DNA of 51,831 nt, counting the filler, from Jimgerdemannia flammicorona (Eukaryota), in NCBI GenBank assembly GCA_003990765.1. It is 2 parts of 2 records of this genome, joined end to end, with 100 filler letters (N's around TTAATTAATTAA, not from the genome) between each part and the next. Parts side by side here need not be neighbours in the genome. Positions count along the whole stretch, not along the records: positions 1 to 25,868 come from RBNJ01000780.1; 1 more part is not named here. One strand, given 5' to 3'. The notes beneath the pieces were generated by a model that was not told where the DNA came from, ran no database searches, and saw only the letters and a program-made list of their open reading frames with translations. Below are positions 549-46,275 of this stretch, one piece after another (positions within the stretch are counted from its first letter, which is position 1; every line of letters starts with the position of its first letter). Position numbers and translations under genes: made by a program.

Positions 549-588
549 ATCAGCCCCCACTGAAGGGTAGTCTATCCCAGACTATTCT

Positions 589-1101: not shown

Positions 1102-1104
1102 GAT

Positions 1105-2164: not shown

Positions 2165-2169
2165 TGTGG

Positions 2170-2600: not shown

Positions 2601-2619
2601 CTTTTTTCTGTGATTCTGT

Positions 2620-3576: not shown

Positions 3577-3619
3577 TGTCTCCTGGGTCGCAGAGGTGCC
3601 TTTCCTTTCTTCTGAGACC

Positions 3620-3926: not shown

Positions 3927-3984
3927 TTGCTGGGGAACATTCTTCTTGAGATAATTGACTTGAAGGAGATGTACCTCCTTTCTG

Positions 3985-4375
3985 TCTGAACTTCCAAATC
4001 CCTTGGCTTGTCTTGTTCCTTCAGTTAGTTCAGAGACTTCCTGTAACTGTGGGGTCTTGACCTTAATGAAGACTGCTTGGGCAATCTTCTGTCCTCTGAT
4101 GATTCAGTACCATTCTGCACTGCTATTGTGTAGGATAACCTTGATTTTGCCTGTATATCCAGGGTCAATGGTTCCTCCTTCTACAGTTATCCCTTGTCTG
4201 GCAAGTCCAGACCTTGAGGTCAGTTGAATATAAGCTCCTTGAGGTGGCTGCATGGCTAATCTAGTTCTGACCATGAAGGTTTTTCCAGGCTTGATAGATT
4301 CATCCTCCAGGCTGTGAAGATCATATCCTACATCCTCTGGGTGAGCTTTGGTCGGGGGTTTGGCCTTGGGGTGCA
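3985..4375 (-). pseudogene. Element A trimeric dUTPase
   Basis: VGYDL, RSGLA, GTIDPGYTG; past one stop, KIAQ and RQAKGFGSS (motifs 1-5). Confidence 0.93.
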
Positions 4376-5700: not shown

Positions 5701-6536
5701 GTCACCTTAACTCTATACTTCTTGCCTCAGTAGTCAAACTTGAGTACTTGTTGGCCGATATCAACAACTGCATTCATTTCCTTCATCCAGTTGGTGCCAA
5801 GAATCATGTCATAGGTGACAGCTTCAGTGACAACAGCTTTAGGGATGGAGAACTGAATGTGTCCAAGGGAAATGGTGATATTTCATACTTCTCCAAGGGG
5901 TTGAGTTCGGGCTCCATCTGCTACTATGATGCTGAGGTTAGATGGTCCATCAATGGGCCATTGGAGGGTGTCCAAGAATTGTTTGGCAATGATACAGATG
6001 GCTGCTCCTGTATCTATGAGGATTTTTGCTTTTTGTCCTCCAATGTCTCCATATAAGTAGGTGCTGATATGTCTTTCAGCTGCTTGAACAGGAATAGGAG
6101 CTGGTTCTTGCCGTGGGATTGGAACTTGGCCAGTGCTAGACCTTGTAGTTCTCAGCAATTTGTTTCGAACTCCAGCTGGTGTCAATTGCAAGAACTGCAG
6201 GAGAGGAGCTTCCATCTTGGCTTCTTGAATCTTCTGCCAGGCTTCATTGTAAATGCCTCTAGGCATAGTCTTTGGAGTGTACTTTTTCTTAGACTTTGGA
6301 GCAGCAGGTTCCTGTTCTTCTTGTTCTATTTCTTCATCTTCTGGTGGCAATTCATTTGTCTCAGGCATGAAGGGTGAGGGGGTTCGGGGAGGTGTTTCAA
6401 CTTGTTCCTCCTCATGCTCTTCATCTTCTTCTTGAATAATTCTTCTGCTGATATTCCTGGATGGTCTTCCCACAGGTCTCTTTCTTTTTTCTGCTGGGTA
6501 GACTGTCTTTTGGGTGGTAACCTTGGTAGGGTACAA
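5700..6536 (-). pseudogene. Element A aspartic protease and upstream acidic linker
   Basis: KILIDTGA motif, IVADG..PLGEV; YDMILG at ~5795-5812. Confidence 0.92.
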
Positions 6537-6639
6537 GTCTAGGTCACTGTAGTCTTCACTGTTGCTTGCTTCCTCGAAATCTTCAACAGGATGGGCTTCA
6601 GTCTTCTTGTACTGGGTGTCATTCCTTCAGTTTGGTGGT

Positions 6640-7573
6640 TCTGAGTCCCTTCGGTCACTTCTTTTATTGTCACATTCAGTGACATATGTCCGAATTATCC
6701 ACAGTGGAAGCATTGGACTTGGGCTCTGTCTTGGACAGGGTACCTTCTTTCTTCTTGCTGGTAATTCCTGTTATCTCTTGGTGGATAATCTTGGCTCCTC
6801 TGTGGTGGATATCCTCTGTTGTCTTGGTAGCTCTGATTTTCACATATAGTAAGTTTTTCAATCTGGCCAACCAATTGGTCTAACTTGGAGCTAAGATCTT
6901 GAATTTCACTTCTGTTCTTCTTTCCTTTCTTGGCTGGCCTCCTTTCTTCGGATCTTTCTTGTCCTTGAAGGAGTCCTTGCAGGGCCTTGACCAGGATATC
7001 TTCTTTATCTTCCTTTTTGTCATGATTGCTCCAGGTGGTTCCTTGCCTGATATCAAAGAATCCTTGGGCTGCATCTACTTGCTCTTCAGACCTTCTGATG
7101 CCTAGGGTGCAGACATACTGGGCAATATTTGGAGGAATTCCATTCATGAAGGTTATTGGTCCTATGATGTCTTGGTTGGTGGCATTGAATCCAGCAGAAT
7201 GCATTCTCTTCTGGATTCTTGTAAAGAAGGCTCTGAGTGATTCTCCAAGATTCATCTTCATTCCCATGATAGATTCCTGAGCCTTGTGGTGGGTTTCATT
7301 TCCTGCATACTTTTCAATGAGCCAATGGACCATGGCTTCATACTCTAGCTCATCGGAGAAGGCTGCTTGTATCTGTCTTGCCAGTTCTGAATCTGGGTTG
7401 TTTGCTGTTTGGTGGAAAATTCCTCTAGCTGGTTCTCTGAGCTGGGCTTTGTAGATGGCGATTTTTCTTTCATCTGAGAGGTTTCTCAAGGCTGCGATTC
7501 CTTCAATTCCATCAAGGAATTCTCTAGGGTCCTCCTCCAGGTATCCTGCAAAAGTTGGCAATGAGGTGGCCAT
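6640..7573 (-). pseudogene. Element A Gag (capsid plus zinc knuckle)
   Basis: LPTFAG..EDPREFL, GESLRAFFTR, CFHCG*FGH knuckle; the N-terminus may extend toward 8100. Confidence 0.88.
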
Positions 7574-8120
7574 TTCATCGTCACTTTCTTCTGATTCTGG
7601 TTCAGGTTCGGATTTGATTCTGATTCACTTTCTGAACTGTCACCAGAAACAGGGATGCTTGGATATCTTGAAGATGGTGTTCTGGTCCTTGGGTGAGGTG
7701 GGATAGGTCTGGGTATTCTTGTAGGAGCTACTTCTGGTTCTGCAAGGGGTTGTAGTAGGGGTTCTATTGGTGAGATTGCTGGGACTGGTATGGGGTGTCT
7801 GGCTGTAAAGTGTTGGGTCCAGGTAATAAGGTCTTCTAGTTCTTATGCAAGTTCTCCAAAAACTCTATCAGGGCTGCCTGTATTGTCTGGTTGATCTGGT
7901 TGATCTGGTTGGGGATTTTGGGCTGTACTGCCTCCTGCTTCTGGTTGGGATCCTTCTGATGCTAGGTAGTTGGTGAGTCTTGAGGTGATTACTTCTCTTC
8001 CTGTCCAAATGCTAGTGATGACTGGTTCTCCTGTAGTGGCAGAGGTTGGTGTTGTATCAAATGTATCCAGTTTGACTGTGGGTTCTTGTGAGCTGAAAAG
8101 TCACATCGATTTTGAAATCT

Positions 8121-8137
8121 TCCCAGTTGAGCCTCCA
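8121..8137 (-). promoter_or_regulatory. Element A primer-binding site TGGAGGCTCAACTGGGA (tRNA-Thr-like)
   Basis: Lies 2 nt after the LTR end (...TTACA), starts with TGG; the TGGAGGC-N4-CTGGGA pattern fits a eukaryotic tRNA-Thr 3' end from memory. Confidence 0.75.
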
Positions 8138-8139
8138 AA

Positions 8140-9629
8140 TGTAATGTGCCGGCTCAATGGAGGCAAATTACAAGGTTGGGGGTTGATGTAGTTTGGCTTG
8201 AGCCCCCAGTTACTTTGTCAAAAAGCAACAAAATGTTCTAAGATTTCTGAGGTCCTTGGTGTTTAGTGGTATAATAGTCAAAGCTGGATATCTGCAAGTG
8301 ATTTCCTTATTGGGATGGTTCTCTGGGTATAGTGGTGATTTGTGTGTCTTTCCCTTCTTGGGTCAACTGGGAATGGCAGAATTTTGTATGTAGCATGAGC
8401 AGTTTTCTTCTTGAGTGACGATCTCTGATTTCTGTATGACAATCTGGCAATTTAGAGGTTCTCCTTATGCGGTTTCTGTGTGACGATATCCGTGTAGCAT
8501 GATGATTTCCAAAAGTATGCGATTTCTGGTAGATAGCTTGATTTGGCTCACTGGGAATGTATGGCATGGGTTCTTCTCGGGCTCACTGGGAATGATGAAC
8601 AACTCGGATGGCTCTTCTGGGAATGCGGATAACTCGAAAGTGGCAGATGATGTGGATTTGGCGGGCTTCTTGAAAACGGTGGCTTAACTGGGAATTAACT
8701 TGGATAGCACAGACTCTTGCTGAATCAGTTTCAACTGGGAATACGGTGGATAACTCAAAAATGGCAGGTGACACGGATTCTTCCTAAATCAGCAGCTTTA
8801 ACTGGGAATACGATGGTGCAGATTCTTCTAAATCAGCGGCTTCAACTGGGAATACGATGGTGCAGATTCTTCCTGAATCGGCAGCTTCGACTGGAAAATG
8901 GGATGGCAGCTTGGAAAGGGTCTCTTGGCAAAGTTGCATCAAAGACTGGCTTCGTTTGCACGAACGGATCACTGCAAAGTTACATCAGAAACTGGCTTGA
9001 GCAAAGTGGTTTTCTAATGTGGATAACTTGGAAATGGCAGCTTATTTCTTAAGTGGTGGGTTACTCAAAGGCGGTGAAGTTCTCCTTGAACTTAGGCAGC
9101 AAATCTTCAGGCTTATCTGGCAAGTGAACCAAAAATGTAACAAACTCTTCTTTGTATCGGAAAGTGGACTGGAGTGGGAATAAGGGGACCAATTGCTCAA
9201 TCTTTAGAGGCTTCTTTGGTTTGCACTTCAATTCAGACTGAGGTTTATTCACTCTCGCCTCTGGGGTAATTTATACAAGTTGGTTGCTATCTGGTTACTA
9301 TGTGGCTAACTATAGATTTGCCATCTTTGGTAATGTTTGGGTGTGTCCTCTGGGTACAGGTGTGTCCATAGGACATGAGTGTGTCCGCAGGACATGAGTG
9401 TGTCCACAGGACATGAGTGTGTCTGCAGGACATGAGTGTGTCCACAGGACATGAGTGTGTCCTCAGGACACAGGTAAACAATCCTGATCTGGTGTCTTGG
9501 CTAATTATAAGTGTGGTGGGTATGAGTAACTATGATATACTGGAAGTCACATCATGCTGAGTAAGTATACTAATTGTTCATGTCATTTGGCTAAGTTATA
9601 ATTCAGATGGTATGTTTTGGTCTGTTACA
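8140..9629 (-). repeat. Element A 5' LTR (~1490 bp)
   Basis: TGTAA...TTACA termini, adjacent PBS, TATAAAT at ~9269-9275 and AATAAA at 9244-9249 on -. Confidence 0.85.
9341..9474. repeat. 19-bp tandem palindromic repeat GGACATGAGTGTGTCCNCA in U3 of A
   Basis: Five near-perfect units at 9371, 9390, 9409, 9428 and 9447, plus degenerate flanking units. Confidence 0.95.
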
Positions 9630-13349: not shown

Positions 13350-14880
13350 TGTTATATAGTGGGTACTGAGTTCTTCAAATATATCAGATTCTCTTCAAGA
13401 TATATCTCTTAGACTAACTATAAGTTTATTATAAGCAAGTTCTTATTAGAGTACCTTTTTAAGGTCTTATAGTTCTCAAACTTCTTATCTTTAAACTGTC
13501 TTGTTATCTCTTAGATTGCTTGTGTGGAATTGAGTATAAGTAAACTGAGGAAACTGACTTTATTTCAAAGAAAATGAGAGAGATATTTATATAAAATATA
13601 ATTCAATAGTTGCTAAGATATAAAACTAAATATAAATTCCAATAATCAAATAAAATACTGGAACATAGAAAACTTTGGTTGTAAGTACAAATTCAAGTAT
13701 CTGTACAAATGGTTATACAAGTTCAGGATACTGGTAGATTTCAGTTGTATAAGAAAAGAATGTCAGAAGAATTTCTGAGTTATATAAGATCAGAATATCA
13801 GAAGAATTATAGTTATATAAAGAACTCAGAGCAGAATGTTCAGGACCCTAGGGGCTTCATCTTCATCACTGCTAGAGATCAGGATATCTTCAAAGAAAAT
13901 GAGATTTATAAATATTTTATCTATTTTATATATGTCACTAATTAGCAGGATGATATCATTATATTTAGCAGTAAGAGTAAGAAGATCAGGGGCTCTCCAA
14001 TCTATGATATTCTCTTCTACAAAATATGGGACAAATGTGGAGTCTTAGAGAGGTCTAACCTGAATACTGGGGCCTTGAAATACTGAGATCAATCCTTATA
14101 GGAATTGGTCTGAATTGTTCTGGAGAATGAGATTTCAGAACTCTTCTACCTCATTACTATTGAGAGTAATAGTAGATTAGACTTATGTGGCCACTATGGC
14201 CTCTAGTACATTTATGTAGTAGGCTGACAATTACTTAAAGTCTGAGACTCTAGTATATTGGGAATTGAGTATAGTATATACTTAAAGATCTGATGAATCT
14301 TCTTAACTATTCTTATTTTATATACATCCATGGAGATGGTATCTTGAATCTCTTAGAGTCTAGCCTGAGGGAATTCCTGGCAAAGAATGTTTCTTATTTT
14401 GTATTTCTGTCACATCTAGAGGTATTCAGTAGTGATAGTGATCCTTGTTTCCATTTTATAGTAGTAGAGGATAAAGTGATAAGAGTCACTAGTACTCAGG
14501 TTAAGACTAGGAGTCCTTCTTATACAGATCCTTATGGCTCTTCTGATATCTTAGAATATTCTTTCTTAGACTGAGAATTTTTGGTGGTTCCTAGACCTTG
14601 AGGTTAGGTGGGCAGTAGACATTTTATTTATAGTGAGTCTTTGAGCTATTTTGGAGTTTGTGAGTCTTGTTTAAGTTGCTACTACTATAGTTCCTTAGTC
14701 CTTCTTTTATATTCCTTAAGATATCTATCTTATAGTCATGATGACTTATGGTTAGTCATTATTACTCATCTTATAGCCTAGGTAAGTCATGCTGTATAAT
14801 CTCCTTATACTCCAATCTGGTGGCTTGTAAGGAAAGACTGTCTTCTATAATTATATCACCATTCTGAGATCACTATTACA
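13350..14880 (-). repeat. Element C 3' LTR
   Basis: Colinear with 24202-25706; PPT-like TAGGAGAAAGA on - at 14881-14891. Confidence 0.92.
13826..14630 (-). pseudogene. Accessory ORF remnant inside the C 3' LTR (U3)
   Basis: Manual translation QKYKIRNILCQEFPQARL*EIQDTISMDVYKIRIVKKIHQIFKY; N-terminal limit approximate. Confidence 0.65.
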
Positions 14881-15299
14881 TCTTTCTCCTAAATAAGGAT
14901 CTTCTTTTGAACATTCTTATTCATTGATCTAGTCTGAAAAATTTGCTGATCCCATAATCTCTAGCAGAGGGTCAAAAAGTAGTATTTATGGGCTGGTATC
15001 TTTCTTATATATTTTGATATAATGTTGAAGAGTTGCTCTCTTTATATAGAGCAAGGGCCTGATTCTGATCTTAACCAATCAGTTGATAGTTCAAACTTCT
15101 CTGACTTCAAAAGTCTCATAGATGAGTAGTTACTAGTACTATATCTCTTAGAGAATGGTCCAGACAGATTGTCTGCTGGTCATAGGATATGCTGTTATGA
15201 TTTACAGATTAGAACCTCATGGATGGTCATCATATTTTACTTCTTTTATATAGATTCATAGTATTTTTTGAGTCTGTTCCTATATATTATGGTAGGTAG

Positions 15300-17293
15300 T
15301 ATAGTTCCTGAGAGTTTTCTAAGTTAGAAGATAGTTCTTTTGATATCTTATATATAGAAGGGTCCTTCCTATTTGGGCTCCATTTTTTGTAACCATGAGG
15401 CTTCTACCATATTTTGATATAGTAGAACCTTTTCTCTAATTTGAATAGGTTCTAGGGTCTTGTGATTCTTTTCCACATTCTTCCTTATCAGTACTTGTGA
15501 CTTGATGATGTAATTTTCTACCTTCTTCTTGATTTGGTATAGTCTCTGAATTTCTGAGTCAATCTATTGCCAAGTTAGGTCTAGATTTGTGGCTGAGGTT
15601 CCATCAGAATCTTCAGGATAAAGTGTGTACTCTGTGACTATATATCTCATAAGACAGAGAGGGCAGTTGGGAGGTAGTTATCCTAATTCTCATATGTTTC
15701 AGAGATCTTGGCCAGGATGTTCTTAAGGGTCTTATTGGTTCTTTCTGTCTGTCTATTTTCTTGAGGGTGATATATAGTAGTCTTGATGTGCTGAATCTTG
15801 TATTTCTGATATATTATCTTATAGAATCTGTTGACAAATTCTGTACCATAATCTGTAGTGATTTGTCTTGATGTCTTGTAGTGGTAGATGATTTCTTAGT
15901 ACAGGAAGTCAGCAATAGAGAGAGCATTGGCTTCTTGTAATGCTTCTACTTCTATCTGTTTAGTAAAGAAGTCTATAATAACATGATATAGTAGTTTCCT
16001 GATAGAGTTACTGGTAGTAGTTCTATGATATCTATTGTGATGTGGTGGAAGAGAATAGATTTGATTCTTGATGATCTGAGTACCTGGTCTTACTGATCTT
16101 GTTTCTGTTTTTGACACTTGTTACACTCTTTGACAAATTGGTATAGGTCTTTTTTCATCTTAGATCACTACATGGTTTTTCTTATCTTGTCATATATATT
16201 GATTCCTCCTAGATATTCTTGTTCATGTACTTCCTTCATTACTTGATACTTCTTATATTTAGGTATTATGAGCTTTCTTCCTTTTCTGAGTATGGTGTTA
16301 TCTAGTTTGAATTGTTTCTAAGTCCAGTTAATAATAGTAATAGTCCAGAGTTTAGGGTGGTTAGACATCTTCTACTATCCAAGGTAGCTGATTAATCCAT
16401 AGTATAGCTCCTTATTCATATTGAATAGTCTTGATGGAGGTATTTCAGAGTGTCCTTGAGAGTACATCAGCATTGGCATTGGTTCTTCCTGAGTGGTGTT
16501 TGATAGTATAGTTATACTCTTGTAGTCTGTAAATCCATCTGATATACATATATTCCTTTAGAGTTCAGAGTGTGAAATAGTCAGGCAAGAGCAGAATGAT
16601 CTGTTTGAATGATGAAGTATTTCCTAACTAGATAGTAGTAAAACTTGTCTACTGCCCAGACTACTGCTAAGTATTCTAGTTTGTATGACTTATAGTTCTG
16701 TTCTACTCTACAGATATCTCAGCTCATATAGGAGATGACATATTTATGTCCATCTTTCTTCTGAGCTAGTATAGCTCTAAGTTCTATAGTACTTATATCT
16801 GTCTACAGGATAAACTCTAGGTTCCAATCTAGTCTTCTAAGAATGGGTGCTTGGGTCAATCTAGTCTTGAGTTCATTTAAGGTTTCTTGCTATTCTTTAG
16901 TTTATTTGAACTTAGTCTCCTTCTTCAATAGCTCATAGATAGGTACTGTAATGTTGGAGTATCCTTTGATGAATCTTCTATAGTAGGAGGCCAGTCCAAG
17001 GAAGGCATGGACTTCTATAGTTGTTCTGGATCTTGGGTAGGCTGTAATAATCTCAATCTTTATAGGGTCTATATAAATTCCAGTCTGGTTGATAATGTGT
17101 TCTAGATAGGCAATTTCTTGAGCTACAAACTTACACTTCTTGGGCTTGATATAGAGGCCATACACCTTGAGCTTCTTGAGGGTTAGCTGTATATGGTTGA
17201 TATATTCCCATATAGTATTGCTGAAGATAATCACATCATTAATATAGATAAAGAGCCATTTTCTAATTTTATTACTGAAGACTCTATTCATTA
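15300..17293 (-). pseudogene. Element C RT C-term, RNase H and integrase remnants
   Basis: ORF 16902-17291 (FLGLASYYRRFI), ORF 15896-16117, WLQKMEPK*EGPFY tail. Confidence 0.9.
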
Positions 17294-17298
17294 TTTAC

Positions 17299-17702
17299 TG
17301 TAACATTTTAGCATAGTTTATTTCTTTTCTTTGTCTTTCTTTAATATTCTACAACTTTCCAGTACTTTCCAAATGCTTAGAAATCCTTTCTTGGTGCTGA
17401 GCATCCTCTAGTACTTATTTAGTTAGTCACTGATTGTCCTGGAAACTTGTAGAACTTTATTTGTCATCATTTGTCATCTTTGCTGAGAACTTTCCTCTTG
17501 GCATTTTTCCTTTGATTTCTTAGATCCTTCTAGATTCTTCTTTCAGATCTTGTATAAATATCCCCTTTGTTTTCATGAATAAAGTCTCAGAATATTTTCT
17601 CTCAGAAATCCTTCAAGAATACTTGACTCCTTAGTATCTCTTCGAGCTACTTAGGACCACCAGAATTAGTTGCTTCCTCATTTAGAAACCAGAACCATTA
17701 CA
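17299..17702 (+). repeat. Element D 5' LTR
   Basis: TGTAACA...ATTACA; 17 differences from the 3' LTR by manual count. Confidence 0.98.
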
Positions 17703-17770
17703 CTTGGTAGTAGTGGTGAAGTTATCCCTAGCCTTATCAAGACACCTCTCAAGATATCAGTCACAACACT

Positions 17771-20700
17771 ATGGAGGACAATGGGTGGAACCCTTCATAC
17801 AGTACCTATGATCCAGACAATGCCTCATATAATTAGTATAATTAGCAAGAAGAAGAGGAACAGCAAAACCCTACTCAGTCAAATGGGGCCATCGAGAGTC
17901 TTTTGTAGACCACATTAGCTCAGATTACTCAACTTCAAAAACACATAGAAAGAAAGGAAAGCAAGGCCCCCACTCATACCTCCACACCTCCACTGACATC
18001 AATACATCCAACAGCAGTTACTATCAAGTCTCAGAAGCCCGACACCTTTGATGGTCAAAGAGGAGGACTATCTACCAATACCTGGTTTTTCCAATTGGAG
18101 CAATATGGAGAACTGACTAATTTGGAAGAAGCAACACTAGTCTAATTTGCCACCACACTCCTCTGAGGGAATGCTGCAATCTGGTGATGAAATCATGTCC
18201 AGAATACTAGATTCTCTGGCCAAATCAAGACCTGGGGCAAATTCTCTGATGCTATTCAAGGCCAATTCAAACCAGTCAACAGCACCAAGACCACATGAGA
18301 CTGTCTGGCAAATGTCAAACAACTCAAGCATATAATATACAATTCCTGTCAATCCTGCTAGAATTACCACATGTCACTGAAGACAAGAAGGTCAACAAGT
18401 ACATCTGAGGCCTGAAAGGTCAAACCCAAGTTTATGTTGAACTAGAAGAACCCAAGGACCTAGATACAGCAATGAAAATTGCTAATAGGTTTGATGTCAT
18501 CACCTATGGTCACTGCTTTGAACAGAAGAGACCACCTTTCAATAACAACAACCACAGAAGGGAGGAACCCAAAGTCAGAACTATTGACACCATCAACAAG
18601 AGCAAGAAAGGCAAGCTTACACCCAAGGAAAAGGAGCACCTCAAGAAGGCTAGAGCCTGCTTCTTTTGCCATCTGCCTGGTCACATTACAACCAAATGTC
18701 CCAAGAAAACTGCCAAACCAAAGAGGATCCTGGTCCTGTCCAAAGACACTCAAGATCAACCAGTTGAACAAGAAGTTATACTCAATTTCATGCAAGTCAA
18801 CCCCAAGGCCCAGATCCCTCAAGTACAGTCAGAAGGAGCCATTGGTTTGGACCTTCAAGCAGTACAACAAGTCACTATTCTGGCACATGAGAGAAGGCTC
18901 ATTCCAACTGGTCTTTCAGTCAAAATCCCCAAGGAACATTATGTAAGAATTGTACCAAGATCTGGCCTCAGCTTCAAGCACTCATTGGATGTTGGTGCTG
19001 GAGTCATTGACTCTGACTTCTGAGGTAAAATGCAAGTCCTGCTAGTCAACCACAAGAACCAACCATATACCATCAATGAAGGTGACAGAATTGCATAGCT
19101 CATTCTAGAGCAAGCCACTCTACCAGTCATCAAAGAAGTCACCAAGCTGTCTTCCACCAAGTGAGATCAGAAAGGCTTTGGCAGTACTGACAAAGTTGCA
19201 AGTATAGCTGAGAACTGAGCCAATTCAATGCTCATCTTCAAAGGTCTAGTCAAGGGACAAGAGCTAGATGTTCTCATAGACAGTGGAGCTGTTGGGAACT
19301 TCATCAACAAGAACCTCATCGACAAGCTCAAGATTCTCACCAAACCAGCTGATAAGAATGGTAGAGTTGTCACTGCAGATGGCACCATCTTACCAATTGA
19401 CTCAATTGCTGCTAAACTTCCCCTCAAGATCCAGAAGTATTGGGAATATTTAGATTTCGAGGTAACACCACTAGGAGACCATGACCTGATCCTAGGTAAA
19501 TTCTGGTTTACATGGTACAACCCTCAGATTGATTGGACCAAGAATGAAGTCACCTTGATTCAGGATGGAGCCAACATTACCATCAAGCCAGACAAGACTC
19601 AGACCAGAACCCCAATTGCTACCCTTTCGGCAATTCAGTTCAAGAAGGCCCTCAAGAAAGCTACCTGTGCCTTTGTGGCACTGATCCAACCAAAGAAAGA
19701 AGACAAGAAGCTATCAATTAGTGAAAGCATCAAGTTACTGCTGAACAAGTACAAGGATGTCTTCCCGGACAAACTACCTGGTCTACTACCTTCAAGAGAC
19801 CATGACCACGAAATCAAGTTGGTACCTGATGCAGCTATACCTAAGAAGAAAATGTACTGCATGCCTTCACTCGAAATTGAAGCAGTCAAGAAGGAACTCA
19901 ATGAACTCATTGAGTGAGGAGCCATTCAACCAAGCAAGTCACCCTTTGGCTCCCCAGTCCTATTTGTCAAGAAAAAGGATGATACTCTGTGAATGTGCAT
20001 AGACTACTGTGCACTCAATAAGATCACAGTCAAGAACCATTATCCACTACTACTCATAGATCAATCTTTAATGCTCTCAAGAATGCCAAGTACTTCACCA
20101 AGATTGATCTCACCTCTGGATATCACCAAATTTGAATTAAGTCAGAAGACATACCCAAGACTGCCTTCATGACACTCTTTGAACTCTACAAATTTCTAGT
20201 CATGGCCTTTGATCTCACCAATGTGCCAGCAACCTTTCAAGACCTCATACAAACTGTCTTCAAGGATCAGCTCTATATCTTCATACTTGTATATATTGAT
20301 GACATCCTGATCTTCAGTAGCACTGAAGAAGAATACCTCAAGCATATCAAATAAGTCCTCAAGATCCTCCACAAGAATAAGCTCTATGCAAAGCTCAAGA
20401 AATGTGAATTTTTCAAGAATCAAGTCAAATATCTTAGACACATTGTATCAGCCAAAGGAATTCAAGTAGATCCAAGGAAAATACAAGCCATTGAACAGTG
20501 GCCTGTACCAGCAAACCTCACTGAACTCAGGTCAGTCCTTGGTCTGGCTGGATACTACCATCAATTTGTCAAGAACTTCTCTGGTATCACAGAATCTTTG
20601 ACAAATCTCCTGTGAAAGGAATCCAACTCTGACCTCTATGTCCCCTATATCTGAGATGCCTTCTATCAATAAGCCTTTCAAGAACTCAAGAACTGCTTGA

Positions 20701-22583
20701 CCTATACACCTGTCCTTAGAAACATGGACCCAAACTTGAAGTTCACAGTCACTACAGATATATCTAACTTTGCCATTGGTGCAGTCATTTCTCAAGATGA
20801 TGGTCAAGGACACTGACCTATTGCCTTTGAGTCAAGAAAATTGTCCCCAGCAGAACAAAAGCTGGCTACTCATGAAAAGGAACTCCTGGTAATCATGCAT
20901 GTCCTCAAGACCTAGCAATACTATCTAGAAGGAGTTGAGTTTGACATGATCACCAATTACAGGTTCCTTCAGTACATCAACACTCAACCAACCCTTTCTT
21001 GCCAACAAGCCAAGTGGAGTCAACTACTTCAGACTTTTACTCCAAACATCATCTACAAGCCTGGCAAAACTCTAGTTGTACCAGATGTACTTTCAAGGAG
21101 ACCTGACCTTGCCACAATTTTACAAGTCACCATGGTACCTGAATTCCTCAACCAGATCAAGAAGGCATATGAACAAGACTCTCTGGTTCTACAAAGGAAC
21201 ACCAAGGAATTCAAGGAAAAGTACACCATCAAGAACAACCTCATGTACTATTAAGACAAAGTATATATTCCTGCCAACCCTGAACTATGGTATAAGATTC
21301 TTCATGAACATCATGACTCCCCACTAGCTGGTCACCTTGGAACTGAAAAGACCATCAAGAATATCCAACAAGACTACTACTGGCCAAACATGCTCAAGGA
21401 AATCAAGGAGTATGTCCAAAGCTGTGATCTTTACCAAAGAAACAAGTCAAGCAACTAAGCACCTGCTGGTCTTCTACAACCCTTGTCAATTCTAACCAAG
21501 AAGTTCGAACAAGTCACAATGGACTTCATTGTACAACTCCCACAAACCAAAACAGGCTATGATGCCATTGTTGTATTTGTAGACCATCTCACTAAGATTA
21601 CAATCGCTGAGCCAACCACAACCAATGCCACTGCCCCAGAAATTGCAAGAATCTTCAAGACTGTCTTCTGCCATTATGGACTTCTCTGAGTAATTATCAG
21701 CAACCGCGACCCCAAGTTCACAAGTCACTTCTGGCAAGCACTCTTCAAGACCCTTGGAATCCAAATTGCTATATCCACTGCCTTTCATCCTCAAACTGAT
21801 GGACAGATAGAGTGAATGAATATAACACTTGAACAAATGCTCAGAAACTATGTGTCTTATGAGCAAGATGATTAGGACCACTATCTGACCTATGCCGAGT
21901 TTGCCTACAATAATGCCAACCAATCATCAACTGGTCTTTTCCCATTTCAGCTACTTCACAGTCAAAACTCTGAGACCCCTGCAAGTCTAGTCCAATTCCA
22001 GCAATCCAGTCACACTCAAGTCTCTACAGCCCAGAACCTTATCGACAAAATGGATTCCCTTCTCAAGATTACCACTATGAACCTACAAAAGGCTCAGCAA
22101 TATCAAGCTAAGTATGCAGATAAGAAGTGGCAAGATGTCATATACAACATTGGTGATATGGTTCTACTCAAAGCCAACAACATCAAGGCTCAATCTCAAG
22201 TCAACTGCCAGTCAGCCAAATTCCAGCCCAAGTACCTTGGACCCTTTGAGATCACCGAGCAAGTCTCTACCTGGTCTTACCATCTCAACTTGCCAACAAC
22301 CATGTGTATACACCCAGTATTCCATATGTCACAACTTAAGGCCTGGAACCAGTCACCCCCATACCCTGGCTGAATTCTGACACTATCAGCACCAGTCATA
22401 GTTGAAGACCACATTGAGTATAAAGTCAAGGAAATCTTAGACAAATGAGTCCGATACCATTGCACAGAATACCTAGTCAAGTAGATGGATTATCCTGAAT
22501 ATGATGCCACCTGAGAACCTGCCACCAATCCCAAGAACTCCCAAGACCTCATTCAAGAGTTTGAGCAAAAAGGAACTCATTGA
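17771..22583 (+). pseudogene. Element D gag-pol polyprotein, disrupted
   Basis: KPDTFDG; CFFCHLPGHITTKC; dUTPase; LIDSGA; YIDD; MDFIVQLP; KYLGPF; chromodomain ~22410-22565. Confidence 0.95.
18790..19190 (+). pseudogene. Element D trimeric dUTPase (between zinc knuckle and protease)
   Basis: IGLDL, PRSGLS, GAGVIDSDF*G, EGDRIA*L, GFGSTD. Confidence 0.95.
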
Positions 22584-22896
22584 CTACCTGTGAGATTCTC
22601 CTCTTAGATAGTAGATGACCTATTGTACTGATCAGGCACATTATGCATCAGGGCTCTCTAAGAGATACAGTATCAGAAGCAAGAGATACAGGAGAACCCT
22701 ATAAATCCTACAACCAATGAGGTTCAAACCAGTTCTCATCCAATCAAGATGATACTTTGGCCCTCACCTTATATAAGGACAGCCAATCCTTGTCAATGAG
22801 TTGATATATTTAATTTGAAGTTTCTTTTAGTCTTATTATTTATTATATATAACTTTGAGAATTCAATAAGGACATTGATTCTTAAGGAGGGGGAGA

Positions 22897-23300
22897 TGTA
22901 ACATTTTAGCATAGTTTATTTCTTTTCTTTGTCTTTCTTCAATATTCTACAACCTTCCAGTACTTTCCGAATGCTTAGAAATCCTTTCTTGGTACCAAGC
23001 ATCCTCTAGTACTTATTTAGTTAGTCACTGATTGTCCTGGAAACTTGTAGAACTTTATTTGTCATCATTTGTCATCTTTGCCGAGAACTTTCCTCTTGGC
23101 ATTTTTCCTTTGATTTCTCAGATCCTTCTGGATCCTTCTTTCAGATCTTGTATAAATATCCCCTTTGTTCTTATGAATAAAGTCTCAGAATATTTTCTCT
23201 CAGAAATCCTTCAAGAACACTTGACTCCTTAGTATCTCTTCGAGCTACTTAGGACTACCAGAATTAGTCACTTCCTCATTTAGAAACCAGAACTATTACA
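22897..23300 (+). repeat. Element D 3' LTR
   Basis: Direct repeat of 17299-17702. Confidence 0.98.
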
Positions 23301-23305
23301 TTTAC

Positions 23306-24080
23306 TGAAAACTTGCTGGGGCATTGTAAATTCTAAATGGTATTCACAGATAGATATAGGTGACAGATGTGATGAAGGCTGATTTCTCACTAGCATCTTG
23401 AGTGAGACCAATCTGATGGAAGTCTGAGAACAGATTCAGAGTGATAAAGTATTTGGCTTTGCTTCTAAGAGTGGTATGAATTTCTTGAATATTTGGTAAG
23501 GGCTGCCTATCCTTCTTAGTGATTGCATTGAGCTTCCTATAGTCAATACAGAGTCTTAAGACAAACTCTCCAGGCTTGCTTCCTTTTTATAATGAGTGAA
23601 GCCCAGGGGCTAATAGCTTGCTTGATGATACTGGCTTCTTCTATTTCTTGAGTTCTGCTTGCAGCTATTCTCTATAGGTAGATAATATAGATCTGACTTT
23701 CTGATAGATGGGCTTAGTATCATCAGTGTCAACTTTATAGTAGTATTTGAGTTCTTGATTATGGATGTCCCTAAAGTCTGTGGTAAGTACTCCTTCATTG
23801 TGATACAGGATCTTGAGAAGTTGTTCTTCTAGGGAAAAGTTTTCTCCAATAGTATATGTATACTTATTCTGGTTCTTGTCTTTGTGCTCAAGTTCAGTAA
23901 TTTTAGTAACAGCATAGGCTCCTCTTCTAGTAGATCCAAAGCCATATTCTCTCTCCTCTCTTAGTCTTAATGAGTTTGAAGGCTTCAGTGATCTTAGGCT
24001 TCTTGACTTCATGGATCAGCATCTGGCCAATTCTGTCATACTTCTTGACTTTGAATAGAGTAGTGGGGTTATAATTTCTT
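23306..24080 (-). pseudogene. Element C dUTPase C-terminal remnant and RT N-terminal part
   Basis: YDRIGQML..., GFGST, LCIDYRKLN; homologous to E 45300-46030. Confidence 0.88.
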
Positions 24081-24180
24081 TCTTGTCTTAAATTCTTGCA
24101 GGGGTGACTTTTGTAGTCAGGGTAGTTGTTGTGGTAGTTGTTTGTTTTTCAGCTTGAAAGTGAGGGATTTGTCTTGAATC

Positions 24181-24198
24181 ACCAGCCAATGGGTACCA
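24181..24198 (-). promoter_or_regulatory. Element C PBS TGGTACCCATTGGCTGGT
   Basis: 3 nt from the LTR end; one transition away from the E PBS; cognate tRNA not assigned. Confidence 0.8.
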
Positions 24199-24201
24199 AA
24201 T

Positions 24202-25706
24202 TGTCACATACATAGTGAGCACTGAGTCTTTCAAATATATCAGATTCTCTTCACTTAAACTAACTACAAGTTTGTTATAAGCAAGTTCTTATTGAAGTAT
24301 CTTCTCAAGATTTTATAGTTCTCAAACTTCTTATCTTTAAACTGTCTTGTTATCTCTTAGATTGCTTGTATGGAATTGAGTATAAGTGAACTGAGGGAAC
24401 TGACTTTATTTCAAAGAAAATGAGAGAGATATTTATACAAAATATAATTTAATAGTTGTTAAGATATAAAGCTAAATATAAATTCCAATAATCAAATAAA
24501 ATACTGAAACATAGAAAACTTTAGTTGTAAGTACAAATTTGAGTATTTGTATAAATAGTTATACAAGTTCAGAATGCTGATAGATTTTGGTTATATAAGA
24601 AAAGGATATCAGAAGAATTTCTGAGTTATGTAAGATCAGAATATCAGAAGAATTATAGTTATACAAAGAACTCAGAGCAGAATATTCAGGACCCTGGAGG
24701 CTTCATTTTTATCACTACTAGAGGTCAGGATGTCTTCAAAGAAAATGAGATCCATGAATATTTCATTCATTTTGCACATATTGCCAATTAGTAAGATGAT
24801 ATCATCATATTTGGCAGTAAGAGTAAGGAGATCAGGGGCTCTCCAATCTATGACATTCTCTTCTACAAAATATGGGACAAATGTGGAGTCTTGGGGAGGT
24901 CTAATCTGGATGCTGGAGCCTTAGAATACTGAGATCAATTCTTACAGAAATTGGTCTAAATTGTCCTAAAGGATGGGATTTCAGAACTCTTCTATCTTAT
25001 CACTATTGAGGGTATTAGTAGATTGGGCTTCTGTAACCATCATGACCTCCAGTGAATTTGTGTGGTGGGCTGACAATTCCTTGAAGTCTGAGACTTTAGT
25101 ATACTCTAAGTTGGGAATTGACTATAGTGTATATTTAAAGATCTGATGAATCTTCTTAGCTGTCCTTATTTCATATATATCTATAGGGGTAGTATCTTGA
25201 ATCTCTTGGAGACTAGCCTGAGAGAATTCTAGGTAGAGAAGGTTTCCTATTTCATATTTCTGCTATATCTAGAGGCATTCAGTAGCAATAGTGATCCTTG
25301 TTTTCATTTTATAGTAATAGAGAATAAAGTGATATATAAGGATCACTAGTATCCAGGTTGAGACTAGGAGTCCTTCTTGTATAAGTCCTCATAGCTCTTC
25401 TGATATCTTAGAATATCCTTTCTTAGACTAAAAACCCTTAGTGATTTCTAGATCTTGAGGTTTAGCAGGTGGTGGGTATTTCATTTATAGTGAGTTTTTA
25501 AACTATTTTAGAGTTTTGTAAGTCTTGTTTGAGTTGCTGCTGCTGTGATTCCTTAGTTCTTTTTTTATATTCCTTGAGATGTCTATCTTGTAGTTATGAT
25601 GACTCATAGTTAGTCATTATTGCTCATCTTATAGCCTGGATAAATCATACTATATAATCTTCTTACACTCCTATAATAATGTTACCATTCTGAAATCACT
25701 ATTACA
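24202..25706 (-). repeat. Element C 5' LTR
   Basis: TGTAAT...TGACA on -; TATAAAT 24431-24437, AATAAA 24405-24410. Confidence 0.92.
24672..25484 (-). pseudogene. Accessory ORF remnant inside the C 5' LTR (U3), up to ~270 codons
   Basis: Manual translation QKYEIGNLLYLEFSQASLQEIQDTTPIDIYEIRTAKKIHQIFKYTL*SIPNLEYTKVSDFKELS; stops are transition-revertible; start uncertain. Confidence 0.7.
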
Positions 25707-25868: not shown

Positions 25869-25968
25869 NNNNNNNNNNNNNNNNNNNNNNNNNNNNNNNN
25901 NNNNNNNNNNNNTTAATTAATTAANNNNNNNNNNNNNNNNNNNNNNNNNNNNNNNNNNNNNNNNNNNN
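25869..25968. other. Artificial assembly linker N44-TTAATTAATTAA-N44
   Basis: Exactly 100 bp with a six-frame stop linker in the middle. Confidence 0.97.
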
Positions 25969-41150: not shown

Positions 41151-42279
41151 ATCTGGTATAGTTTCAGATCTCATGAGTATTCTGGTCTTGTACAGAAGTA
41201 CTATATCAGTAGCATTCTATAGTAGGATCAAGAGATCAGTAGGACTTAGCAAGAAGGCTAAACTAATATTAAAAAAAATACATCCAAACTACTTATCTCT
41301 TATAAAACTGCTCTACTTACTATTTTTAAGCTATAATAAGTCTATTATCTATTATAAGTATGACAATAGCTATATCTGAGCTCTCTTAAAAGATAGTGAT
41401 ACTATGAAGATTATGTGGCTAAAATAAGACTACTGTATTGATCACAAATGATATCCTGAAGCTATAAGTGAGATTATATCAGATATTTCTACTGCTCTCA
41501 CAAGTGGGGTTCTTTTTTTCCAGAATATAGAATATTACTGGAGTAATATTATTATATATATATATAAATATAGAAATATTATATCTAATATAACTCAATA
41601 GAATATGAGTATATAGTTATATAAACTCTTGGTCCAGAATCTTATACTGCCAGATAGTACTGGAGGAGATTTGTCTTTTATTAAGTCTCAGGAGCTCTGG
41701 CTTGGATATCTGCCAAAACAGATTAGTATCTGATCAATTCTTTTATTCTATAAGTAACTCTCTCTCTCTATCATATAAATAGTCAAGTACTTATCTCATA
41801 CAGTATACTAAATTGTACTAAGAATATATATATATATAGCCATACTGAGAGTATTATCAAACTGGTCTACTGTTTACTCTAGTAATCTACTTAAAGATTT
41901 TCAGATCATAGCTGCTATTATTATATAGGTCATATCATACTTACTATAATATAGCAGATATATAACTAGAAAAATATAGCAGATTTCTATAACTCTTCTT
42001 GACTCCTCAGAGTTATAAGTAGTATCTGTCTGATCTTATTATCAGACTATCAGGATGAGGCTCAAACTCTTTTGATCTGAGGTTTATTCACTCTAGATAC
42101 TGGGATATTTATATAAGTTTACTAGCTATAAGATGGCTAAGTTATATCTATATTTCCTATAAGTTACTTTTTATAAGTATAGATCCTCTATATCTGTAAA
42201 ATCTTTATGATTGTGAAGATTTTATATCTATGAAATCTCTATATTTGTAAAATGACTACTATTTATAAGACTATATTAT

Positions 42280-42734
42280 TGTAATGTAGCAGATGCTAAA
42301 ATGGGCAAGTACATCAGATTTCTTTATCTTGAATTCTTGTCTTCTTGACTCCCAGAGTCAGTAGTTCCTTAAGGCCAAATGTGTTTAAGAGGTAATTCTG
42401 AAGGTCCTTTTATTGGTATACTTGTTCTTTTTCTAACACTTTTGATCTGAGGTTTATTCACTTGAAGATACTGGGTTATTTATACAAGTTTGCTAGCTAT
42501 GAGATGGCTTCTGAGTTATGTGGCTAAGTTATGAGTTATTTAGACAATATCTAGAAATTTAGACAATGTTGAAATACTATACTAAATCAGGGTATTCGAT
42601 TTGGACAATGTCTAGAAATTTAGACAATGTCGAAATTGGTGACTGCTAACTATAAAGCTATACTACTTTGGGAATAGGTGCTATCAAGTGTCTATTCCCT
42701 ATTTCCTTCTTCCTAATTCAGCTATACTGTCACA
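42280..42734 (-). repeat. Element E 3' LTR (455 bp)
   Basis: Direct repeat of 48442-48837 with an extra ~60-bp internal duplication. Confidence 0.96.
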
Positions 42735-42771
42735 ACTTCCTCCTGAATAGATGGTCTCATCCCTGAGGCAT

Positions 42772-43233
42772 CTATTCAAACTCCCAGGCTTCAACCATCT
42801 GTATGATCTTATACTGTGCAATTTGCTGCATGACTGTTTCCCAATGATGTCTTCTTACTTTCTCGAAGTTGGTAGGGGTTACTTCTCTCAGGTAGTCTAT
42901 TGCTGGTTCATCTTCTCAGAATAACTTGTGGATCCTTTTGGCAATAGTGATCTGTGAGTGGGAGAGCTGACACTTGGCAATCCAGTCCTCTTTGGTCTTT
43001 GCTGGATCCTGATTGAGCACCTGCTCAAGCTTGAAGTACTCTTGGAATTCTGCCTGATACTGATAGGCTCTAAAGTGTGAGATCTGAGAGAGATGAGTCT
43101 GCACAATACTCTGAATATCCTCATAGTATGCCTCTATGGTCAGAGGCTCAGTGGTGTGCCATTGTCTTTCGATGGCTCTTTGGGCAGCACTAGTGATCTT
43201 GAGTACCATCGTGGTGCTTCGGTTATTGGCCAT
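42772..43233 (-). pseudogene. Element E post-integrase accessory ORF (153 aa, one internal TGA), HTH-like
   Basis: ORF 42916-43233 continues in frame EDEPAIDYLREVTPTNFEKV...WEFE* to 42772. Confidence 0.78.
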
Positions 43234-43234
43234 G

Positions 43235-45841
43235 GTACTTCTTGAGTTAGTTTTGATGAATGGTAGTGGGGATTATTGTACCTGAGGGCTTTCATAGCCA
43301 GAAAGTAGTCCCTTTTATATCTTGTACCAGATAAGGTCCTTTCCACTTGAGCTCCAATTTTCGTGACCAAGAAGCTTCTACCATGTTCCGATATACTAGA
43401 ACTTCATCTCCTATCTTAATAATCTCCAGGGGCTTATGGGTTTTTTCCGCATTATTCTGTTGTAGTGCCTGCACCTTGATTATGTAATTCTCTGCCTTTT
43501 TCCTGATCTGGTGTAATCTCCATATCTCCATGTCCACATGCTTCCAAATTGTATTATTACTTGCTGACAAACTTCCACCAGAACTTTCTTTGCCAAATAG
43601 CATTTCTTGTAGTATAAAATGGGTGCTTTGTGATCATATATCCTGCAGAGTGGATAATGCTATTGGAAGATAGTGGTCCCAGTTTCCATATTCATTACAG
43701 ATCATAGCGATGATGTTCTTGAGGGTCTTGTTGGTTCTCTCTGCTTGTTCATTTCCTTGTAGGTGATACGCAGTGATCTTGATGTGTTGGATCTTGTACT
43801 TCTTGTAAAGAATCTCATGAAACTGGTTGACAAATTCTGTTCCTCTATCTGTGGTAACTTGCTTTGGGGTCTTGAATCAGCAGATGATTTCTCTGTGCAA
43901 GAAATTGGCAATTGACTGTGCATTGGCTTCCTTGAGTGGCCCAGCCTCTATCCATTTTGTAAACAGGTCTACTATTACAATGACATATTAGTTGCCAGTC
44001 AATGTCATGGGTAGAGGGCCAATTATATCCATTGCAATGTGGGCAAATGGTATTGGTTCGATGTCTGCTGATCCAGGGGCTTGATTCCATTGGTCTTGTT
44101 TCTGTTTCTGGCATTTGTCACAAGTTCTGACAAATTGTCTGATATCTTCTTCCATCCAGGCCACTACATGGTTCTTCTTGCTTTGTCATATGTATTTATT
44201 CCTCAGGATGACTAATTGTTGTCTTTTCTTGAGTATTTCTCCATTAGTTTCAAATTGTTTCCATGTCCGATTAATAATTGTTTTTGTCCATTCTTCCAGA
44301 TGCGAAGGCATCTTTCACTGCCCCAGATAGCTGATGATTCCATAGTACAGCTCCTTATTCATGGTGATTTTGTGGGGGTGGGGTCCTTCAGGATGTCCAT
44401 GAGAGGGTGTCAGCATTGGCGTTGGTTCTTCCAGGGTGGTGGGTGATTGTGGCATCATATGCTTGCAGCTTCATGATCCATCAGGCATAGATTCCTTTGG
44501 GCTCACTGGTAGTGAGCAACCAGGTGAGTGCCAAATGATCTGTCTGGATGGTAAAGTATCTGCCAGCCAGATAGTAGTGGAATTTCTCCACAGCCCAGAT
44601 GACTGCAAGGCATTCCAGCTTATAAGACTTATAGGACTGCTCTGCCCCATGAGTACCTCGGCTGAGATAGGCTACCACGTATTCGGCACCATTTTTCTTT
44701 TATGCAAGGACAGCTCCAAGTCCCATTGCACTGGCATCTATTTGCAGAATAAACTCCTGAGTCCAGTCAGGTCTTCTCAAGATTGGGGCCTGGGTCAATC
44801 TGATCTTAGCTCATCGAAGGCTAGTTGCTGCTGCTGAGTCCACTGGAACTTAACCTCTTTTCTGAACAGATCATAGATAGGGCTGGCGATGTGGGAGAAT
44901 CTTCTAATAAATCTTCTGTAGTAGGATGCAAGTCCCATGAAGGCTCGGGCTTCCATGATGCTGGTAGGTACTGGGTATGCTGCTACTGCTTTGATATTTG
45001 TGGGGTCTGTGTGTGTTTCTTCACGGTTGATAATGTATCCAAGATATGCGATCTCTTCTTCTCTGAACTTGCATTTCTTGGGCTTGATGTAGAGGCCATA
45101 TTTGTGAAGCCTTCTGAGGATTTCCTCAACATGTTCCAAGTGCTCCTTGGCTGTTCGGCTGAAGATGATCATATCATCTATATATACCATCATCCATTTT
45201 TCCATAACATCCCTGAAGATGCTATTCATCATTCACTGGAAGCTTGCTGGTGTATTGCACATTCCAAAGGGTATGCAAAGATAGACATAGATTCCATTAG
45301 AAGTGATGAATGCTGATCTTTTGCTGGCTTCAGGTGTAAGGCTGATTTGGTAGAATCCTGAGAACAGATCCAGGGTGGTGTAGAATCATGATTCATTCTC
45401 CAGTATAATAAGAATATCACTAATGTTTGGCAATGGTTGTCTGTCCTTCTCTGTGACCTCATTGAGTCTTCTATAGTCTGTGCAGAGTCTTGGTGTAAAT
45501 TCTCCTGGTTGGCTTCCTTTCTTTGGTGCAAGGATGATGGGAGAGAACTAAGGGCTGCTGGCTTCTTCAATGATACCAAATTCCTCCATTTCCTTGATCT
45601 CTGTCTTAAGCCATTCTCTGTATGCTGGTGGAATAGAGTGGGCCTTCTGATAGATTGGCTTTGCATCTCCAGTATTGACATCATGATAATACAAGGGTTT
45701 CTTAGTCTTGATGTCCTTGAAATCTATGGCCAGTACATCCTTGAATGTATGCAAGAGGCTCTGCAATTCTTCCCTGAGGGGGAAGTTTCTTCCGATTGTG
45801 TAGGTGTGTTTGTCTTGGCTTTCCTCCTTCTTGTGCTCCAA
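43235..45841 (-). pseudogene. Element E RT, RNase H, integrase
   Basis: [39 protein letters not shown]. Confidence 0.95.
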
Positions 45842-45869
45842 TTCGGTGATCTTAGTTGCTGTGAGGACT

Positions 45870-46275
45870 CCTCTTCCTATAGAGCCAAATCCAGCTCTCC
45901 CTTACTGAGTTTGTCTGATGTTTGCAACCTCCTTGATTCTTGGATTAAGGACAGGTAGGATGAGCATTTGTGCCAGCCAATCCTTCTTCCTTACTTCAAA
46001 TGGGATTGTTGGGTTGTGGTTCCTGGTGAGGAGAAGGATTTCTCCAGTATAATCTGAATCGATGACTCCTCCTTCTATAGATATTTCGCTTTTCGCCAGG
46101 CTACTCCTTGTCTTGAGAATTCCAACATGGTTTGGTGGGATGGTTTCTTTAATTCCTGTTCCTAGAATGGTAGTGGTCTGTGGTTCGAGTATTGTATGTA
46201 TAGTAGTAGATAGGTCTATTCCAGCTGCATTCTCCAACTTGTACTGTGGTATGACTGTATCAGGGTGAATCCTTC
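45870..46275 (-). pseudogene. Element E trimeric dUTPase
   Basis: AAGIDL, RSSLA, GGVIDSDYTGEI, LAQM, GFGS. Confidence 0.94.

Follow-up and report, generated by a model that had tools for sequence, protein, structure and literature searches.

Protein genes that lie wholly within the unique 3' (U3) region of a long terminal repeat (LTR) distinguish a small number of complex retroviruses, among them mouse mammary tumour virus (MMTV) with sag, and in part those with nef and bel. A locus in the genome of Jimgerdemannia flammicorona raises the question of whether a Ty3/gypsy retrotransposon can be built in the same way. The window analysed here, a stretch of 51,831 nucleotides joined from two records of GenBank assembly GCA_003990765.1 (positions 1 to 25,868 come from RBNJ01000780.1), contains the remains of such an element, called element C, at 13350-25706 on the minus strand. 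A sequence-only reading of the window had proposed that an accessory open reading frame (ORF) was relocated into U3, so that both LTRs of C carry a gene. We consider it probable that what the two LTRs hold is a pair of hypermutated and dead copies of an authentic accessory gene, situated wholly in U3 of a Ty3/gypsy lineage with dUTPase-carrying relatives. The proposal of an accessory gene in sense orientation in U3 was thus borne out at this strength, while the suggestion that C still carries a gene was not, as both copies are pseudogenes.

The repeats at 24202-25706 and 13350-14880 (both on the minus strand, as are all features of C) are the genuine LTR pair of a Ty3/gypsy element, because they flank pol remnants, have TG..CA ends, and are accompanied by a polypurine tract and by a primer-binding site with a leader matching that of a neighbouring element, E. 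The 5' LTR starts with TGTAATAG at 25706, where the sequence-only reading had also begun it, and ends with ..GTGACA at 24202, an end placed by comparison with the junction of LTR and primer-binding site in E. The second copy starts with the same TGTAATAG at 14880; its end near 13350 is approximate and has a TA-rich flank. The TG..CA termini were found in the alignment of both repeats, which are identical at 1286 of 1486 aligned columns (86.5%). Directly 5' of the 3' LTR lies the polypurine tract TATTTAGGAGAAAGA (14881-14895), and 3 nt after the 5' LTR lies the primer-binding site TGGTACCCATTGG (24186-24198); positions 24204-24125 of C are 88.75% identical to the primer-binding site and leader of E (48444-48365). 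The target-site duplication is ambiguous, the flanks ..TATAT and ATATG.. having ATAT alone in common within TA-rich, mutated sequence. Two runs of 44 N (25869-25912 and 25925-25968) stand 163 nt upstream of the 5' LTR, and the upstream flank of C is uncertain.

The case for a real gene inside these repeats begins with intact proteins found elsewhere. A phmmer search with the X-masked translation of the LTR region against 1.84 billion representative proteins returned four matches at E <= 0.001, of 247 aa (E 1.2e-73), 138 aa (7.2e-36), 214 aa (1.5e-24) and 342 aa (1.5e-20), and word-indexed searches added further relatives of 271, 215, 174, 247, 161 and 87 aa. The relatives are metagenome predictions throughout, annotated as 'hypothetical protein' at most, their clusters holding 1-9 sequences each and the contigs that encode them measuring 600-4848 nt. 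Nine intact proteins, whose identity ranges over 35-80%, align collinearly with the C copies from the N-terminus through a common C-terminal ..LNFLL end. A scan of metagenomes for related loci yielded two contigs, L001 and L002, with intact ORFs of 323 and 291 codons respectively; scans of viral and prokaryote genomes yielded none. Over the ORF, L001 is 65% identical to C at the DNA level, and its protein is identical to that of L002 at 120 of 279 aligned residues (43%). The two contigs differ at 127 first, 100 second and 168 third positions of these 279 codons (chi-square ~18, 2 df), with proportions of nonsynonymous and synonymous differences (pN and pS) of 0.40 and 0.75, the latter saturated. 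Codon-structured conservation, which had been put forward as a check on the gene, is therefore seen among the intact relatives, both in these counts and in the range of identity of the nine proteins.

Between 24675 and 25484, five stops common to both LTR copies fall in the frame given by the sequence-only reading, compared with 12-22 in the other five frames. All 11 premature stops of the first copy and 9 of the 11 in the second sit at columns where close intact relatives have glutamine or tryptophan, and the other two are GAA>TAA changes. Because intact proteins match so strongly, at best with E 1.2e-73, and because 20 of 22 stops occupy glutamine or tryptophan columns, we regard the similarity as more than chance and the LTR region as decayed copies of a real, uncharacterised accessory gene of ~270 codons.

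In the 5' LTR, pseudocopy 1 occupies 24672-25479. The position of its start codon (25479-25477) reads ATA, leaving it with no start codon, and its natural stop is TGA at 24674-24672; between them are 11 premature stops (4 + 7), 4 of which lie in the first 24 codons, and one frameshift. The frameshift is a 4-nt insertion at 25338-25335, a place where copy 2 and the intact relatives are uninterrupted. Pseudocopy 2 (13826-14622) has kept its ATG at 14622 and its natural stop at 13828-13826, and has acquired 11 premature stops (5 + 6) and lost 7 nt between 14258 and 14257. A profile of the nine intact relatives, run on the six-frame translation of the window, matched copy 1 at 25337-24675 (E 1.2e-85), with the first 29 profile positions in another frame at 25416-25330, and matched copy 2 in two frames, at 14559-14254 (E 7.4e-32) and 14278-13829 (E 1e-51). 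No significant profile match was found in the window outside these two copies. Searches of the window by tblastn, blastp and phmmer with the X-masked translation found the two LTR copies alone, the best other match being in the 3' region of E (E 0.3). Sensitive blastn of the C LTRs against the rest of the window gave no match over the ORF and no DNA-level similarity to E or to a further element, A.

These boundaries correct the earlier picture of an open ORF at 24672-25484. In the standard code that frame contains nine internal stops, and the single open piece on the sense strand is 82 codons long (24675-24920). The ATG at 25484, taken as the start, sets the wrong frame over the first 47 codons; it spans two codons of the true frame, which begins at 25479-25477. 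From about codon 50, after the 4-nt insertion, the proposed frame is right and it ends at the right stop (24674-24672); the N-terminal part is what failed. A duplicate had been placed at 13826-14630, and a second copy with that same end does exist, with an extent of 14622-13826. It was correctly noted that the ORF track shows antisense shadows alone, as the 82-codon sense piece is overlapped on the plus strand by ORFs of 78 and 96 codons, and that the ORF fills much of the 1.5-kb LTR (~54%, or 808 of 1505 nt). The plus-strand shadow ORFs (24634-24921 and 14275-14571) lie at differing places in the two copies and belong to no Pfam family; they were taken as chance. Reading the C frame in the ciliate code (table 6) was also rejected, since two TGA stops remain and the pol genes of the neighbouring elements read in the standard code.

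How the copies came to be so damaged can be read from the differences between them, which amount to 190 transitions and 10 transversions. At the 111 C/T sites, A follows in both copies at 58 (66 if A in one copy suffices), and at the 79 G/A sites T precedes in both copies at 38 (46 on the looser count). Private T or A states number 93 and 97 in the two LTR copies. The observed/expected ratio of CpG is 0 in both C LTRs and 0-0.21 across all elements of the window, and transitions outnumber transversions by 18:0 and 21:1 in the LTR pairs of element D, which is nested in C, and of E. The decay of C has the character of hypermutation of the repeat-induced point mutation (RIP) kind, C>T and G>A with a preference for CpA>TpA, or else of deamination of methylated cytosines, by which the loss of CpG is also explicable. 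Taken over all the elements, the pattern points to C>T decay of repeats, RIP-like or driven by methylation, that would be genome-wide. Changes of C>T and G>A turn CAA, CAG and TGG codons into stops, which accounts for the position of 20 of the 22 stops.

The next question is where in the LTR the gene lies. Both LTRs of C have the same order: the TG start, 137 nt, a first TATA box (TATA1), a leader of ~90 nt, the ORF, ~235 nt, a second TATA box (TATA2), AATAAA and the unique 5' (U5) region, with ~200 nt from AATAAA to the LTR end. TATA1 is TATAAAA at 25563-25569, 90 nt before the start codon (14705-14711 in the 3' LTR). TATA2, the presumed promoter of the genomic RNA, is TATAAAT at 24431-24437 (13585-13591 in the 3' LTR), and the poly(A) signal AATAAA, which marks the area of U3 and the repeat (R) region, is at 24405-24410 (13559-13564). 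The earlier placement of the ORF in sense orientation between the LTR start and the TATA box at 24431-24437 was confirmed, with TATAAAT present there and the order repeated in the 3' LTR. From the start of TATA2 to AATAAA the distance is 27 nt in the 5' LTR of C, 27 in the 3' LTR and 26 in L001. A poly(A) signal so near a TATA box falls at the cap site and, by the logic of retroviruses, is active in the 3' LTR only. Given this logic and this spacing, the ORF would therefore lie in U3.

The intact contig L001 is arranged in the same manner, with one TATAAAA 65 nt before the ATG, the intact ORF, one TATAAAT (position 1218) and one AATAAA. The sequence after its ORF aligns with both LTRs of C (z 5.6 and 4.2, with 0 of 300 shuffles reaching the score), and its leader with C at z 4.1. 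Between the L001 ORF and TATA2 neither a polypurine tract nor an LTR start was found. The U3 position is thus apparently common to C and an intact, diverged relative, which would make it a trait of the lineage. The contig L002 has a TATAAAA 80 nt upstream of its ATG, and the stop of its ORF adjoins GGAGGGAGGA and then TTGTAATAAG, which resemble the polypurine tract and LTR start of C. Its post-ORF sequence compared with the LTR start of C gave z 4.1 and 1.6, significant against one C copy only, and its pre-ORF region showed no similarity to the C spacer or the pol end of E (z 1.3 and 0.5). These features suggest that the L002 ORF is internal in position, on a contig too short for proof. The same contig (L002:1-1535) opens with TGGTAC, which is like a primer-binding site, and has a 33-nt repeat (170-202 and 1481-1513; 82% identical, z 5.7) that is not collinear with a second repeat. 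L002 could be a minimal LTR element with the ORF as its sole gene, or the region of a full element comprising the pol end, the accessory ORF and the polypurine tract.

Between the ORF stop and TATA2 of C (24440-24672, minus strand) there are two to four occurrences of motifs such as TTGTATAAC and TTCTTCTGATAT, which have the look of degenerate enhancer-type repeats; Tandem Repeats Finder made no call there and was uninformative for the C LTR, as was a scan for bacterial promoters and terminators.

Other explanations of the locus can be weighed against this evidence. Were TATA1 the true promoter, the ORF would lie in R instead of U3, R would be ~1.15 kb long, and the genomic RNA would have the gene as its first ORF, with a short transcript ending in the 5' LTR. 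A TATAAAA that precedes the start codon by 65-90 nt in both C LTRs, L001 and L002 speaks for this arrangement, as does the fact that the cap site is placed by motifs alone. We nevertheless consider it improbable, since the spacing of TATA2 and AATAAA is fixed at 26-27 nt in sequences just 65% identical, and we know of no R longer than 1 kb that contains a gene. A one-off chimera, with the gene brought by recombination or transduction into the LTR of this dead copy or its close kin only and the layout forming no functional plan of a lineage, has little probability in our view: L001, an independent sequence whose DNA identity is 65%, has an intact ORF of 323 codons and the same succession of ORF, TATA2, AATAAA and U5-like sequence, and a gene in both LTRs of C must have been reverse-transcribed there at least once. 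In favour of a chimera, C is visibly rearranged, having lost 2.4 kb internally and received a nested insertion, it has a primer-binding site and leader in common with E (88.75%) next to unrelated LTRs (z 1.6 and 0.7), and in L002 the stop touches a motif like the polypurine tract and LTR start.

The third possibility, that the region is non-coding U3 in which a chance open stretch was produced by reading through stops, is already refuted and retains a negligible probability. It would be in keeping with the nine stops of the proposed frame, with the lack of a Pfam family and with differences between the copies that have no codon structure. It does not account for the match to an intact 247-aa protein at E 1.2e-73 together with three more, for the full-length collinear alignment with nine intact proteins, or for the 20 of 22 stops at glutamine or tryptophan columns and the 5 shared stops where the other frames have 12-22.

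Several points weigh against a genuine gene in U3 as the explanation we favour. The U3/R boundary depends on the motif pair of TATA2 and AATAAA, and the context outside the window comes from two sequences, of which L001 begins at TATA1 with its LTR start out of view. TATA1 is a short AT-rich motif, and it does not align significantly with L002 (z 0.1). The family is tiny, at ~13 clusters, all of metagenome gene predictions. Both copies in the window are dead and give no sign of expression or function. Differences between the two LTR copies are spread over codon positions as 45/35/50, without codon structure, a distribution that is uninformative on the ancestral gene because the decay came after insertion. 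There is no relative in Pfam, the Protein Data Bank (PDB) or the ESM Atlas, so that a guess at function relies on composition, and AlphaFold models are poor, with a predicted local distance difference test score (pLDDT) of 40.5 for the C-type protein and 51.5 for the E-type protein described below; they are helical but unreliable.

Assuming a gene wholly in U3, its transmission can be outlined. U3 would be copied to both ends in reverse transcription, giving the gene twice per integrated element, and genomic RNA that begins downstream of TATA2 in the 5' LTR would contain it once, in the 3' U3, like MMTV sag. It is plausible, although somewhat short of an even prospect, that TATA1 additionally drives a monocistronic mRNA of ~1.1 kb that ends at the poly(A) signal of the same LTR. 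The present wreck of C is the outcome of deletion of gag, protease and dUTPase, splitting of the reverse transcriptase by the nested element D, and stops from hypermutation. We think it unlikely, while worth stating, that the LTR is a self-contained cassette of TATA box, ~270-codon ORF and poly(A) signal, in which solo LTRs would be expressible helper genes and the protein would boost the LTR promoter or blunt silencing, an MMTV-like design reached by convergence.

The protein has few features from which a role might be guessed. No Pfam family was assigned to the window copies (E <= 10) or to the nine intact relatives (E <= 1, beyond chance-level matches), a PDB sequence search had 0 matches, and the ESM Atlas offered nothing usable. 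The maximum Kyte-Doolittle(19) value is 0.59-0.74, and a hydrophobic segment is lacking. The proteins carry a net charge of -20 to -27, while the first 45 residues of one relative, P0009, sum to +8; a basic N-terminus is followed by an acidic C-terminal half with conserved hydrophobic-acidic motifs, ..DLISFED.. and ..LNFLL. The accessory protein is predicted from these values to be soluble, unlike Env or Sag, the latter being a membrane-anchored glycoprotein. Foamy viruses use a distinct internal promoter for bel/bet, and the product Tas, a transactivator, has an acidic activation domain. By analogy with Tas, the C-type protein may conceivably have an acidic activation tail and act in trans to regulate the expression of its own element, a tentative and rather doubtful assignment.

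The gene has a possible counterpart in element E, where an internal accessory ORF of 153 codons (42772-43233, minus strand) follows pol and precedes the 3' LTR; a single premature TGA interrupts it at codon 106. This ORF is outside the ~300-bp LTR of E and overlaps the pol end by ~10 nt. It belongs to a second orphan family of ~153 aa (P0017 and relatives), represented by eight metagenome proteins, 107-153 aa in length, with E 5.9e-70 for the best match; a profile of the E type matches it at E 4.8e-65, and the eight intact relatives have no Pfam family above chance. An hhalign comparison of C-type positions 15-134 with E-type positions 29-126 gave a probability of 48.8% and E 1.8e-4 over 97 columns with 27% identity. 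Reciprocal searches of the window with hidden Markov models were marginal (E 0.44-1.1), finding the expected ORFs and frames along with an equally strong match at 22964-22794 that looks spurious. The homology of the C and E accessory ORFs is accordingly best described as remote and not secure, and would concern the N-terminal half of the C type alone. As a comparator in element A we took the open 152-codon stretch after pol (592-1047, minus strand), whose homology to the C type is not significant (E 0.11 and 0.65). The earlier statement that the C ORF has an extra C-terminal region of ~130 aa absent from A and E is fair with respect to E, with ~135 aa past the similarity, but a relationship to A is not demonstrable. 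The C-terminal half is not particular to C either, being present in all full-length relatives. Weak matches of both accessory-ORF profiles (E 0.77; ~8-20) at 51005-51187 on the minus strand, within tandem-like repeats (50501-51532), may be another decayed accessory ORF.

The C ORF is downstream of the polypurine tract and LTR start, unlike the E ORF, which stands between pol and the tract. In the 377 nt between the pol end of C and its polypurine tract (14881-15257), the accessory-gene profile has no match. A shift of the polypurine tract was one route that had been suggested for the capture of the ORF; in its plain form it misfits C, because 137 nt of LTR-start sequence precede the TATA box upstream of the ORF. 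The LTRs of C and E (24202-25706 and 48442-48739) are unrelated (z 1.6 and 0.7), and the 3' similarity of the two elements stops at E 43231, two bases from the start of the E accessory ORF. These comparisons hint that recombination between the C and E families may have exchanged their LTRs and 3' ends, because the primer-binding site and leader have 88.75% identity, far above the 66% of pol, next to LTRs that are unrelated.

Accessory genes at the 3' end of retroviral genomes include spumavirus bel/bet and lentiviral nef, which overlap U3 in part. The C ORF differs from these in being wholly inside U3. The closest layout is that of MMTV, which has a sag/naf ORF in U3, two LTR promoters (P1 and P2, with P2 in U3 driving Sag) and an encoded dUTPase (PMC9412291). 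C resembles MMTV in having a whole sense ORF of ~270-320 codons in U3 of an LTR longer than 1 kb, and hence in both LTRs, in the two TATA boxes that flank the ORF and may be used as promoters, and in that A, D and E of the same window carry dUTPase. It departs from MMTV in being a Ty3/gypsy retrotransposon, in which no env was seen, and the C-type protein, unlike Sag, has no hydrophobic segment and, with no Pfam family, no sequence relation to it.

Among retrotransposons, a review of plant LTR elements describes sense additional ORFs (aORFs) in the internal region, as family-specific ORFs downstream of pol, obscure in function and often without database relatives, and the phrase 'in the LTR' occurs 0 times there (PMC7264820). 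Rotifer ORF3s (PMC5408684) and, in a figure legend, an 'add. ORF' of fungal chromoviruses (PMC2864245) are described as well. The aORF layout is shared by E and A and perhaps by L002, whereas in C and L001 the ORF is inside the LTR. Small-RNA genes inside the LTR are reported for Cassandra (5S) and Helenus/Ajax (PMC10886601). These elements are like C in having a gene-like unit in the LTR that is duplicated and dispersed with it, and unlike C in that the units are short RNA polymerase III genes of non-autonomous elements. No LTR retrotransposon with a protein ORF inside the LTR was found among literature titles and abstract openings, a coverage outside which most subscription journals lie, so that absence is unproven.

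The remainder of the window is a stack of decayed Ty3/gypsy elements that read in the standard code, as found by self-comparison and by a Pfam scan of 102 stop-to-stop frames chosen out of 173 frames of at least 70 aa. In C, the 3' part of the interior (14896-17298) holds the end of the reverse transcriptase, RNase H and integrase remnants, and the 377-nt spacer, while the 5' part (23304-24201) passes from the primer-binding site and leader straight to the start of the reverse transcriptase. Pfam RVT_1 matches C on the minus strand at 16905-17294 and 23347-23586, both between the LTRs, and the interior is 66% identical to E 45236-43231. Gag, protease and dUTPase, ~2.4 kb in E, are missing from C, where the reverse transcriptase starts directly after 80 nt of leader. 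The reverse transcriptase is split by element D (17299-23303, plus strand), a younger, nested Ty3/gypsy element with LTRs of 407 nt (17299-17705 and 22897-23303) that are 95.6% identical and a clean 5-bp target-site duplication, TTTAC.

Element A (~1-9600, minus strand) encodes integrase, RNase H, reverse transcriptase and dUTPase, B is a fragment only, and E (42279-48739, minus strand) has LTRs of ~300 bp at 42279-42575 and 48441-48739. At the edge of the window, downstream of the accessory ORF of A, positions 1-280 form a 21-nt tandem repeat with GKT/GQD repeats in translation, and the 3' LTR of A is outside the window. The Pfam scan found dUTPase in A, D and E, and its order relative to protease differs: it comes before protease in A (3576-4850) and D (18409-19020) and after it in E (45905-46273). 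The window pattern echoes the variable placement of dUTPase in basidiomycete elements that is described in PMC2864245, and gypsy elements bearing dUTPase have been reported from basidiomycetes, Tuber and bdelloid rotifers. The RNase H of A has its closest Atlas cluster mostly in Basidiomycota.

The copies in the window are themselves pseudogenes, and what they mean concerns the lineage from which they derive. Two orphan families, of ~270-340 aa and ~153 aa, until now 'hypothetical' metagenome predictions, are here tied to retrotransposons. If a protein gene wholly in U3 is true of a Ty3/gypsy lineage, this layout arose outside the retroviruses, coding content can drive the length of an LTR, and solo LTRs could carry genes. 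As annotation pipelines for transposable elements mask LTRs as non-coding, such genes would be missed.

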